This document shows positions 1 to 17,830 of a stretch of 64,000 nt of DNA, one piece after another. The notes beneath the pieces are model-generated. The model saw only the letters and a list, made by a program, of their open reading frames with translations, had not been told where the DNA came from and did not search any database. The position numbers and the translations under genes are program-made. This stretch comes from Chrysomallon squamiferum (taxonomy: Eukaryota > Animalia > Mollusca), in the NCBI GenBank assembly GCA_012295275.1, contig CM022675.1, positions 5,828,001 to 5,892,000 of the forward strand, in the 5' to 3' direction. The number at the start of each line of letters is the position of its first letter. Position 1 is the stretch's first letter.

Positions 1-453
1 TAATATTTATATAAGAACTGTTGCTGCTACTATTGCAACAACAACAACAGCAACAACTACTAAAACACTCCTAATAAAAACAAAAACGCAAAATACTATT
101 CCTTCGTCTTTTATGACTATTACTACTTTTACTACAAGTACAGCTACCGACATAACTACTACTATGATGACTACCACTACTACTACTAGAACTGTGACAT
201 TTATAGTCTTCATCATAATAATCATCATTTTCATTATTATCATTATAACTATTGGTGTTTTTACTATTACTATTAATATCATCAATATAAATATTAACAG
301 TTATTATTGTTAGTTGTTATTATTATTATCATCCTTATTATCGTTATTGCTGTTGTTATTATTATTATTATTATTATTATTAGTATTAGTAGTAGTAGTA
401 TTAGTAGTAGTAGTAGTAGTAGTATTGGGAGTAGCAGCAGTAGTAGTATTTAC

Positions 454-15400: not shown

Positions 15401-17830
15401 GAGACATGCCACAGACATAAAATCTATAACGGGAAACACAGAAATATTACTACTGTTGTTGTTACTGTTATCATTCTTCTGGCTGTTATTATTGTTGTTG
15501 TTGTTGTTTCTGATGTTGATTCTGTTGTTGCTGTTGTTGTCGTTGTTATACCTACTGTTATTGGTCGTAGTTGTGGTGGTGTTAGGGTTGTTATTATTAT
15601 TACTAACTTACCAGAACATTTATTATTATATTTAACATATCCTGTACGACAGTCACAGTTGTAGGATCCCTGCGTATTGACACACAGCATATCCGGTTCA
15701 CAGATTTTTTCATTTTCTTTACACTCGTCAATATCTAAAACACATCAAAAATGTCTATGAGTTGTACATAGCTGTTTCTGCCCTATCTGTACTAATGTAT
15801 GTCAGTTCTACATAACTGTATGTTCTCTGTCTGTTCTAATGTCGATGAGTTGTACATAGCTGTATCTTCCCTGTCTGTTGTAATGTCGATGAGTTGTACA
15901 TAGTTGTATCTTCTCTTTCTGTACTAATGTCTATGAGCTGTACATAGTTGTATCTTCCCTGTCTGTACTATAGTCGATGAGTTGTACATAGTTGTATCTT
16001 CTGTTTCTGTACTAATGTATATGACCTGTACATAGTTCTATCTGCCCTGTCTGTACTAACGTCTATAAGTTGTACATAGTTGTATCTTCCCTATCTGTTC
16101 TATAGTCGATGAGTTGTACATAGTTGTATCTTCTGTTTCTGTACTAATGTATATGACCTGTACATAGTTCTATCTGCCCTATCTGTACTAAAGTCCATAA
16201 GTTGTACATAGTTGTATCTTCCATGTCTTAACTAATGTCGATCAGTTGTACATAGTTTTATCTTCCCTGTCTGTACTGATGTCTGTGAGATCTATCCCGC
16301 TAATCTGCGCTCTCCGTGTTAACTTCTGTCAGTTGTATCACCCCCACATTATTAATGTCTATGAAGTGTAGAGTTGTGTTTGTTCCCTGTGTACTAATGT
16401 CTGTGAGTTGTACACAGCTGTCACTACAGAGCAATGGATTTAGACTGTGCAGTAAGGTTGTATGTGGTAACAGTCTTTTTAAACTGATATGACCATTTCA
16501 AACAAGGGTTAATAGAGTTTAACTCTGCCTCTTGTGTTTGAGAAGTCAAATGGGTAGTACATAATTTTGAAATGGATATCTGTAGGAAAAAAGTCTGTTG
16601 AATTATTGTATTTTTCATGTGATGAAAAGATCTGTCTATCGGTCATCTCTAGCATTTTACTCTCTGATTAAAAGGTCAGTGTAAAGTTATTTTTTGTAGC
16701 TGATCTATAATTAAACGATTAATGTGTATCTGTTTCAATTAAATTACAGGAACCACTTTACAACTTACTATATACTATGTACTTTTTCTCAGATATATTT
16801 GTTTTACAAACAGTGGCAGTGTTTCACTACTTCATATTTACCTTTGCAGATATTTGCTGATCTGAAGTAGCCTACTTCACATTCACACACATATGATCCG
16901 TTCAAATTTTTGCATTTTCCATTGTCTCCACAGCTGATATTTTGTGTTGTACACTCATCAATATCCTCATTGCAGTTGTCTCCCTTCCATCCACTCTTAC
17001 ACATACACGTACCATTGACTTTATCACAAGACTCTGTGTTTGTCACTGAACAAGTGCAGTTTTGTGTACAGTCAACTCCATATGTCCCTTCTGTACACTC
17101 TGAAAATAATAACAGTAATAGTAATGACGATAATAATAATAATAATAATAATAATAATAATAATAATAATAATAATAATAACAACAACAACAACAACAAG
17201 AGTAACAACAAAGATAATAATAGTGACGATAATAACAACAATAATAATAATAATAATTTGCAATAATAATGATAATAATAATAAGAAGAAGAAGAAGAAG
17301 AAGAAGAGGAAAAAGAAGAAAACTAGTATTATGATCACGGTCAGTTGACTTACCTTTAGCAAAAGTAGAGAAAGCTTGAATAGTTAAAATGAAGAATAGC
17401 GTATATACCTTAATATCTGAAATAATAATAATAATAAAATAAAATAACAACAACAACAACAAAATAATAAGAACAACAACAAGCACAAGAACAGCAACAA
17501 TAATAATAATAATAATAACAACATTAATAATAATAACAAAATAATCACGATGATGAACATTTTGATGATAATGATGATGATCACATTACCGCGATTACCA
17601 ACAAAGAACATCCATAATAATGACGGTGATGTTGATGACGTTGCTGTTGTGATGATGTTGATGATTATTGTAATGATGATGATGGTGAAATTTTTTTTAA
17701 AAATGCAAATGAAAAAAATATATTTAATTTGGTTACACTTTAAAAAGAATTGGTAGAAATATACTCTTCAAAAAAAAATCATGTGTTTCAAAATAACTTA
17801 CACTGAACCTGTTAAGTCTTGTTGTGTCAT
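454..17830 (-). CDS. Gene B (3'-partial): signal peptide plus tandemly amplified multi-EGF protein, a rearranged paralog of gene A
   Basis: Exons (high-low): 17830-17809, 17416-17354, 17099-16842, 15734-15612, 15371-15261, 14753-14496, 13429-13307, 13066-12956, 12407-12150, 10786-10664, 10423-10313, 9769-9512, 8431-8309, 8068-7958, 7423-7166, 6036-5914, 5673-5563, 4986-4729, 4504-4238, 3549-3418, 2685-2575, 2008-1751, 1526-1260, 585-454. All are GT-AG, all internal exons are phase 1-1, and I saw no stops. About 1320 codons and 31 EGF-type modules lie in the window; the gene continues past position 1. Confidence 0.8.
2286..2373 (-). pseudogene. Pseudo-exon W (5'-truncated copy of gene A exon 30); further copies at 5264-5351, 7683-7779, 10066-10157, 12707-12798, 15010-15105
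   Basis: Encodes [23 protein letters not shown] but the acceptor and the first ~12 codons ([12 protein letters not shown]) are replaced by (TG)n. Copies at 2286 and 5264 also have a 4-bp deletion and a Cys-to-Ala change (SCSAKPG). Confidence 0.85.
2926..2961 (-). pseudogene. 5'-truncated remnant of exon Y' at the type-2 cassette junction
   Basis: Only [11 protein letters not shown] plus the donor remain, fused at ~2961 to intron sequence homologous to gene A ~36970. Confidence 0.8.
3630..3808. repeat. (GA)n microsatellite; homologous tracts at ~665-832 and ~37753-37853, other tracts at 17880, 26990, 50694 and 63083
   Basis: Direct inspection. (TAA)n, (CA)n, (TAAA)n and (TAG)n tracts occur in most introns. 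Confidence 0.97.
5000..17100. repeat. Five tandem genomic cassettes (type 1, ~2.35-2.64 kb): exon X, 44-bp minisatellite intron, exon Y', exon Z, pseudo-exon W
   Basis: Near-identical X exons start at 7166, 9512, 12150, 14496 and 16842, and the introns are also homologous between copies. Confidence 0.95.
6055..6750. repeat. 44-bp minisatellite array; also at ~8450-9100, 10805-11740, 13447-14075 and 15752-16420
   Basis: Unit ctgtactaatgtctatgagttgtacatagttgtatcttccctgt; copy number differs between cassettes. Confidence 0.93.

Follow-up and report, generated by a model that had tools for sequence, protein, structure and literature searches.

What is the origin of a gene that begins like its neighbour and then continues with the internal exons of that neighbour in a different order? 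The question is raised by a stretch of 64,000 nucleotides (nt) from the mollusc Chrysomallon squamiferum (the window; all positions given here are window positions), in which two genes, A and B, lie in tandem on the same, minus strand. Gene A is a predicted mucin-4-like gene. Gene B, which starts with an ATG at 17830 and runs beyond base 1, opens with copies of the first two exons of A and goes on as a long series of exons for EGF modules. A sequence-only reading of the window had proposed that B was assembled from A. Our analysis suggests that B is a young rearranged duplicate of A, in which the start and signal-peptide exons were joined to amplified EGF cassettes, and that its product is likely a headless, calcium-binding multi-EGF rod of the secretory pathway; on balance, we consider this account probable.

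Exon models of genes B and A

Exon models for both genes were built from splice signals and reading frames, and all splicing described here is predicted from these signals. The model of gene B has 24 exons (17830 to 454) and 1323 codons, with 204 cysteines and no stops, and it shows AG at 23 of 23 acceptors and GT at 24 of 24 donors. The sequence-only reading had described 24 in-frame exons without stops, and this holds in our model; the in-frame status depends on the skipping of six exon remnants and one truncated exon, which are described below. All 22 EGF exons are phase 1-1, in line with the proposal that phase 1-1 EGF exons of A were shuffled to form B. They encode 31 EGF modules, 22 of them calcium-binding EGF (cbEGF) modules and 9 eight-cysteine EGF modules, and the gene carries 33 N-glycosylation sequons.

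The exon order of gene B is e1, e2, X, (Y', Z, X) four times, Y', Z, X', V, W, Z, X', V, W, with all exons on the minus strand. Exon 1 (17809-17830, with the ATG at 17830) is a copy of A exon 1 (63045-63024), and exon 2 (17354-17416), which encodes a predicted signal peptide, is a copy of A exon 2 (62355-62293). The X exons (16842-17099, 14753-14496, 12407-12150, 9769-9512 and 7423-7166) are copies of A exon 31, the first consisting of an eight-cysteine EGF and a cbEGF. The Y' exons (15612-15734, 13429-13307, 10786-10664, 8431-8309 and 6036-5914) appear to be chimeric cbEGF exons, in which an acceptor of the A exon 25 type is joined to the 3' half of A exon 21 with an in-frame deletion of 6 nt. 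The Z exons (15261-15371, 13066-12956, 10423-10313, 8068-7958, 5673-5563 and 2685-2575) are cbEGF copies of A exon 22. X' (4729-4986; second copy 2008-1751) is also chimeric, its 5' half belonging to the X lineage and its 3' half being diverged, and V (4238-4504; second copy 1526-1260) and W (3418-3549; second copy 585-454) are copies of A exons 32 and 33, respectively. The predicted direct splice of exon 2 onto an exon 31 copy uses a donor at 17354 and an acceptor of X at 17099, as earlier proposed.

The cbEGF consensus (a D-[IV]-[DN]-E-C start, six cysteines, and an asparagine plus an aromatic residue) was matched by 22 of 22 cbEGF modules of gene B, and the Pfam family EGF_CA was found on all six B exons scanned (E values from 3e-8 to 7e-11). 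Masked self-BLAST returned no match of the B region to A exons 3-20, and only EGF-type families were found on the six B exons scanned, which agrees with the claim that the visible part of B has no NIDO, AMOP or VWD domain. By its architecture in this visible part, gene B would be a derivative of the mucin-4-like family and not a member of it. The TB family (8-Cys TGF-beta-binding), which together with hybrid domains characterizes fibrillins, was absent among the Pfam matches of the six B exon types scanned, and the 'fibrillin-like' names that databases give to relatives probably stem from their cbEGF content. Gene B runs off base 1 and, judged from the preceding cassette, the window stops 4 nt before the position that would decide between a next cassette and an A-like intron 33.

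Gene A (31415-63045, minus strand, with a 3' limit at about 31415) has 40 modelled exons with 2181 codons and no stops, together with a candidate last exon from 31513. Its exons are numbered in our independent model as they were in the sequence-only reading, and those that recur in B are exons 21 (48546-48289), 22 (48050-47940), 31 (42417-42160), 32 (39931-39665) and 33 (37674-37543), in addition to exons 1 and 2. The predicted layout consists of a signal peptide, an EGF, NIDO, AMOP, VWD, C8 and Ig-like domains, an EGF block, a SEA-like region, a further EGF, a transmembrane (TM) helix and a tail. Pfam scans of single exons matched NIDO (5.6e-15 and 5e-7), VWD (5e-5 and 7.8e-7) and C8-3_MUC4 (1.7e-11), with an Ig-like match and EGF_CA in addition, while AMOP was matched at 9e-4, under the curated cut-off, on an exon that carries part of the domain. 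With NIDO, AMOP and VWD preceding an EGF block, gene A classes as mucin-4-like in these scans. The TM helix is visible in the sequence of exon 38. Pfam matched no SEA domain on single exons of A, and the SEA assignment is indirect, in that exons 35-37 match regions of the molluscan proteins P0063 and P0074 (E 2e-11 and 3e-11) that Pfam calls SEA. At the level of sequence, these predictions confirm gene A as an intact NIDO-AMOP-VWD-EGF-SEA-like-TM gene.

Composition of gene B

In a masked self-comparison, positions 1-20547 proved to be a patchwork of segments from 36970-63651 that all share one strand, with B-to-A matches of 75-98% (E 1e-14 to 1e-148 in masked self-BLAST). As the sequence-only reading had noted for exons 1-2 and the DNA before them, the homology continues upstream of the gene to A position 63651: a block at 17984-18243 (minus strand) is homologous to A 63189-63457 (79%), and a far-upstream block at 20392-20547 (minus strand), possibly a copy of the promoter, is homologous to A 63485-63651 (86%).

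The head junction lies in the intron at 17100-17353, which begins with 13 nt like A intron 2 and then follows A intron 30 to its end. It drops A exons 3-30 and with them NIDO, AMOP, VWD, C8 and the first EGF block. Downstream of the head, the X-to-X spacings (2346, 2346, 2638, 2346, 2437 and 2978) give five type-I and two type-II cassettes, in accord with the claim of five plus at least two. A type-I cassette (2.3-2.6 kb) runs from X through the start of intron 31 with a 44-bp array to Y', then through intron 21, Z, and intron 22 with its TG microsatellite to a headless piece of exon 30 and intron 30. A type-II cassette (about 3.0 kb) consists of X', a short intron, V, W, intron-33-like DNA, a 35-nt stump of Y', Z and an exon 30 remnant. 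The 44-bp minisatellites of the type-I introns lie at 15750-16289 (12.3 copies), 13446-13990, 10803-11609, 8448-8854 and 6053-6625, and their parent array is found at 40889-41877, within intron 31 of A. The 44-bp array shows a weak link to repeats in intron 24 of A, with 9 of 300 shuffles scoring as high.

How the Y' exon was made can be read at its acceptor. The 22 nt before Y', taken from the copy in the second cassette, match the acceptor of A exon 25 at 19 positions, the highest score in 31 kb of A and one that none of 300 shuffles attained; beyond the acceptor, A exon 25 and Y' continue with near-identical DIDEC codons. For these two reasons, we interpret Y' as a probable crossover product of exons 25 and 21. 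Formation of the acceptor by mutation within exon 21 had also been considered and was rejected given the 19/22 match.

The 3' half of X' stands at a synonymous divergence (dS) of 0.84 and a nonsynonymous divergence (dN) of 0.24 from A exon 31, and the intron of X' has no clear homologue in A save for its last ~27 nt. This half would thus need a third source, and gene B would not have been made from A alone. The claim that B is composed of copies of A exons 31, 21 (3' half), 22, 32 and 33 in a new order therefore holds for the exons that were traced and has to be amended for the X' half and for the acceptor of Y'.

Six headless remnants of A exon 30 lie inside introns of gene B. One of these, at 15010-15101 on the minus strand, is fused to the TG microsatellite of intron 22, and the others start at 12798, 10157, 7774, 5351 and 2373. 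The remnants are decayed: a cysteine is lost in 3 of 6, a 4-nt deletion has destroyed the frame in 2 of 6, and the G at position -1 of the donor is altered in 6 of 6. The truncated Y' (2926-2960, minus strand, 35 nt), which marks the point where intron-33-like DNA re-enters the cassette, is presumed to be skipped in splicing as well.

Cassettes differ from one another by 2-14%, some blocks are 99.8-100% identical between cassettes, and the variant patterns are mosaic among cassettes, as would be expected of unequal crossing-over or conversion. The median identity of a B module to its nearest neighbour within B is 0.97, which supports the earlier suggestion that the gene is young.

Constraint on the coding sequence

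Among the copies within gene B there are 44 single-base changes (10 silent and 34 replacement), none of which removes a cysteine or creates a stop. At the codon level, 42 events (32 of them replacements) likewise include no such change where 7.2 were expected (P 0.00035), and because of this deficit we consider protein-level constraint on gene B to be supported. The deficit persists when V is left out (0 of 31, P 0.0025). All cysteines and all 22 cbEGF consensus sites are retained, and the copies of the coding exon classes differ by no insertion or deletion, compared with five gap events in six intron sets. The skipped exon 30 remnant would serve as an internal control, since it decays while the coding exons stay intact. 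Pooled between A and B, the ratio of dN to dS (omega) is about 0.48 (P 0.012), a value that includes A's own branch. The non-cysteine residues of B appear to change at about the neutral rate.

The second V copy (1260-1526) carries 11 codon changes relative to the first, several of which are clustered at the 3' end, and the flanking X' and W differ by one base each. It is likely a conversion tract from another paralogue or a site of local fast evolution.

Gene B in independent sequencing runs

B-type DNA was found in 9 of 11 listed sequencing runs from three studies, at 14-53% of the sampled words of 12000-18300; the run that matched best in this word sampling may be the source sample. No RNA run is among the 11 listed, which has no bearing on expression. 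Contigs were compared over 16300-17870, for runs X1, X2, X6 and X7 (run labels, to be distinguished from exon X), and over 2540-3620. Among the matches listed, contigs of three of these four runs (X1, X6 and X7) carry exon 2 together with 27-30 nt of B-type intron without a difference (17324/17327-17414), and exon 1 is covered by contigs of runs X1, X2 and X7, with one change in run X7 that is read as Leu to Ile. Run X2 has no cover over exon 2, a hole that proves nothing. The exon 2 contigs reach only 14-17 letters past the end of the homology to A intron 2. Further downstream, a contig of run X6 crosses the junction at 2961 with 27 letters on its short side, where our rule was 31, and has extra changes in the Y' stump; run X10 gave only low-complexity matches over 2540-3620. 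Since B-type DNA is present in contigs of runs from three studies, gene B does not appear to be an assembly artefact.

No single contig spans a cassette, and the cassette number given here is that of the assembled window. The depth of the single Z contig relative to the head contigs is about 7-8 in run X1, 5-6 in run X6 and 11 in run X7, compared with seven copies in the window; contig depth is not copy number, and these values are a weak hint that the length of gene B varies between individuals.

Relatives in other molluscs

Exon 31 was used in a profile-free search of 1.84 billion representatives, of which the best 150 were taken, and a module pattern was applied to 154 proteins to count double modules (an eight-cysteine EGF followed by a cbEGF). 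By hand count, about 52 of the 154 match the VWD region of A, and six of the 154 contain 7-13 double modules. The head of gene A shares 28-35% identity with its 25 best matches, and of the 13 that were looked up, 12 are named proteins of gastropods or bivalves. Among proteins of up to 2000 amino acids, neither X' nor the VWD exon retrieved one from the same species or a near relative, the best identities being 51% and 59%, respectively.

The EGF block of gene A (36503-51703) is made of older repeats of about five exons, each ending in a double-EGF exon (21, 26 and 31). This series of about five exons is shared with Haliotis P0005, and because the exon series of A is present in both Haliotis P0005 and Littorina P0006, it would represent the old state. 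A tree was made of 70 modules from A, B and 11 chosen proteins over 74 columns; many of its forks are open, and many P0008 modules were missed by the pattern. A exon 31 forms a group with seven B modules (96/95) and A exon 32 with two (100/98), and 10 of 14 modules of Physella P0009 (99/98) and 7 of 10 modules of Pomacea P0007 (96/91) group together. Because repeats cluster by protein in this tree, the double-EGF module seems to have been amplified separately and recurrently in other molluscs; the amplifications in the Pomacea, Physella and Mercenaria members of the family are young.

The amplified relatives resemble gene B to different degrees. The same double-EGF module is amplified in Physella acuta P0009, Biomphalaria glabrata P0008, Pomacea canaliculata P0007 and P0010, and Mercenaria mercenaria P0001, and a TM-like end is retained in P0001, P0009 and P0010. 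Unlike in B, the amplification in P0008 and P0009 took place within a gene that retains its head. P0010, whose cluster includes the headed protein P0160, is probably a fragment, and P0001 is without a clear signal peptide. P0007 resembles B in that it has a signal peptide and matches neither NIDO nor VWD, but it is a gene model made automatically and includes additional N-terminal domains. Of the six amplified relatives, P0007 alone could plausibly be a headless form with a signal peptide. P0010, P0036 and P0095 were set aside as candidates for true headless forms, given that their clusters are shared with longer proteins, and the other headless relatives are probably mostly fragments too. Three family entries of Mercenaria, P0001-P0003, may form one cluster. 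The amplified relatives (P0001 and P0007-P0010) are database entries for which no paper was found, and a literature search that excluded most subscription journals and supplements returned no description of B-like genes in the mucin-4-like family.

Discussion

By what route could gene B have arisen from gene A? The junctions of B lie in introns or at repeated motifs, passing from intron 2 to intron 30, from the 44-bp array to the exon 25 acceptor and exon 21 at the DIDEC codons, and from the TG microsatellite to the middle of exon 30. We propose that a tandem duplication of A came first and that non-allelic recombination at repeats, together with unequal crossing-over, then produced the 2.3-2.6-kb and 3.0-kb cassettes and multiplied them, with the reading frame being preserved by the phase 1-1 exons. 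Shuffling of phase 1-1 EGF exons is an established route to new proteins, and calcium is known to stiffen cbEGF arrays. Selection would act on folding and on the calcium sites and hardly on other residues, which fits a spacer whose length outweighs its surface. It is likely that B is translated and that the fold and length of its product matter more than its surface. As for the end of the gene, we lean slightly towards the view that it lies left of the window in copies of the SEA-like and TM exons of A, in which case the product would be a tethered or shed spacer of the glycocalyx or mucus; otherwise, it would be secreted.

Several observations weigh against this account. Among the B copies, dN/dS is 0.77-1.18 (roughly 0.8-1.2), depending on the transition bias assumed, and the changes counted are shared by descent and not independent. 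Conversion from functional paralogues may have imported some of the safe variants, as suggested by the 11 codon changes in V and by Z, which including its flanks is ~98% identical to A. No contig bridges the head junction with 31 letters on each side. The exon 30 remnants retain GT, with an AG 23-69 nt upstream, which makes mis-splicing possible, and the truncated Y' has an AG just upstream and an intact donor, and its 35 nt, if spliced in, would put the following exons out of frame. Finally, an insertion of about 2.1 kb (18244-20337), with a near-perfect 9-nt target duplication at its flanks, separates the two upstream homology blocks.

Several of these points would be accommodated if B were a silent or decaying duplicate whose intact look reflects its youth and gene conversion from A and other working paralogues. 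An omega near 1 among the copies favours such a duplicate, as do the contrast between Z and Y' (which is ~81% identical to A exon 21), a mixture of the sort that conversion leaves, the X' half that came from elsewhere, and the upstream insertion. The sequence-only reading had itself named dN/dS near 1 combined with disabling mutations as a sign against B; the ratio is indeed near 1, but no disabling change was found. The deficit of cysteine losses and stops remains when both V and the alleles equal to those of A are left out (0 of 20, P 0.02). Moreover, the Y' form is absent from A, and yet five of five copies keep six cysteines, the frame and the splice sites; the dead remnant decays in these same cassettes, and the ATG and signal peptide are kept. 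Taken together, these data make a silent duplicate unlikely.

An alternative function for gene B is that of a recognition or decoy protein (in gamete, immune or self/non-self interactions), with non-cysteine residues diversifying on a fixed EGF scaffold. Replacements are common while the scaffold is intact, and position 14 of Y' is D, P or H. The repeats of abalone VERL are ZP-N domains and those of sea urchin EBR1 are CUB/TSP domains, and both proteins have a role in egg-coat recognition. B shares with them long repeat arrays, but EGF-type families only were found on the B exons scanned, with no ZP-N or CUB/TSP repeats. Among the B copies, omega shows no excess over neutral. We consider VERL and EBR1, which the sequence-only reading had invoked, to be loose analogies. 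It is the case that concerted repeat arrays occur in VERL, where repeats 3-22 are reported to evolve in concert (PMC2704960), and that EGF-only partial duplicates can modulate the pathway of their parent, as described for NOTCH2NL, young partial duplicates of NOTCH2 that act through their EGF repeats and of which two of four have a predicted signal peptide (PMC6092419). In NOTCH2NL, EGF repeats one to six are preserved without amplification, and its function has been tested; B, in contrast, omits the head and amplifies internal exons. As B is without the likely binding head of A, competition for ligands of that head would not be expected. The proposed decoy, adhesive or recognition role is unsupported, and we regard this alternative as distinctly unlikely.

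It is very unlikely that B descends from a third member of the family, located elsewhere in the genome, its likeness to A being due to family-wide duplication and conversion. The X' 3' half and its intron are without a close source in A, Y' is well diverged from A exon 21, and one contig of run X1 leaves X into a diverged EGF-like stretch (a loose end at 16895). These points have to be set against the upstream DNA, exons 1-2, X, Z, V, W and introns, which match A throughout the range given above, against the grouping of B modules with A exons 31 and 32 in the module tree, and against the tandem arrangement of the two genes on one strand. An error of assembly in the array or in the join of head to X, to which the near-identical blocks and the lack of a contig spanning a cassette might point, is hardly credible in view of the divergence and mosaic patterns of the cassettes, the B-specific sequence in runs of three studies and the run X6 contig that crosses the 2961 junction just under the 31-letter rule.

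If gene B is a rearranged duplicate of A, its closest working parallel would be LPA, much closer than VERL or EBR1. According to the account cited here, plasminogen was duplicated, and the copy that became LPA lost kringles I-III while its kringle IV expanded as a copy number variant (PMC7613587). As in that account, B is a duplicate of its parent that lost N-terminal modules while keeping the signal, and one of its internal modules was multiplied as a genomic cassette of several exons (PMC7613587). The two differ in that LPA is built of kringles and B of EGF modules, the parent of B being a membrane mucin-4-like protein, and in that exons which were not neighbours are combined in the B cassettes in a changed order, along with chimeric exons that are new. 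In addition, the LPA cassette is described as a coding copy number variant (PMC7613587), whereas B is known here from genomic sequence alone.

Other comparisons are more distant. Skeletal mucin4-like proteins of corals have a NIDO-AMOP-VWD-EGF architecture in the account cited (PMC4890752), and gene A shares this architecture with them and with the molluscan proteins P0038, P0063, P0074 and others, whereas B is without NIDO, AMOP and VWD. A differs from this group in that its model has no TSP1 repeats and no long mucin domain rich in proline, threonine and serine. The bivalve shell-matrix genes EGFL and EGFZP pair a tandem EGF protein with a domain-richer relative, which has been read as neofunctionalisation after duplication (PMC9290575). 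Unlike B, they belong to the ZP family and reflect an old event, and the part of that source concerned with them describes no cassette amplification (PMC9290575).

The mechanism proposed for gene B is already known in kind; what would be new is the family, the youth and legibility of the event, and an exon born from two exons. Exon shuffling is textbook knowledge, yet age has made most examples illegible. In this locus, parent and daughter are adjacent, each junction is located with an accuracy of a few bases, one new exon reveals both of its parents, and the dead remnants act as a neutral control within the same cassettes. Should B prove to be expressed and polymorphic in length, it would be an invertebrate counterpart of LPA, well suited to measuring how quickly a shuffled gene comes under selection. 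That several molluscs amplified the module separately suggests a fast-evolving and so far unstudied family of surface or mucus proteins. A bolder view, that molluscan mucin-4-like receptors repeatedly yield apo(a)-like headless, length-polymorphic cbEGF arrays with a frozen scaffold and a free surface, and that B is a newborn example with new exons made by recombination at the DIDEC codons and a cassette number that already varies, seems doubtful to us.

Other features of the locus

A frame in intron 32 of gene A (38810-39091, minus strand) resembles the tail of a MULE transposase by eye and had no Pfam match at E 0.1. Introns of A also contain tandem repeats derived from acceptor regions: a 49-bp unit at 40105-40297 echoes the acceptor and first codons of exon 32, and repeated units at 42880-43000 resemble the acceptor of exon 30. 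It is possible that these repeats act as decoy splice sites or as seeds of new exons.

Upstream of the two genes, a short open frame (about 33 codons) has been retained in each (A 63500-63594 and B 20401-20502) and may be due to chance or may be an upstream open reading frame. The 2.1-kb insertion before gene B contains a 66-bp tandem array (18411-18808; 6.1 copies, 96%). Farther upstream, positions 21257-22084 hold a small DNA-transposon-like element with 41-nt terminal inverted repeats (95%), which we take to be a truncated element of the Tc1/mariner type. A plus-strand frame within it (21446-21928) matches the DUF4817 helix-turn-helix family (E 1.3e-8).

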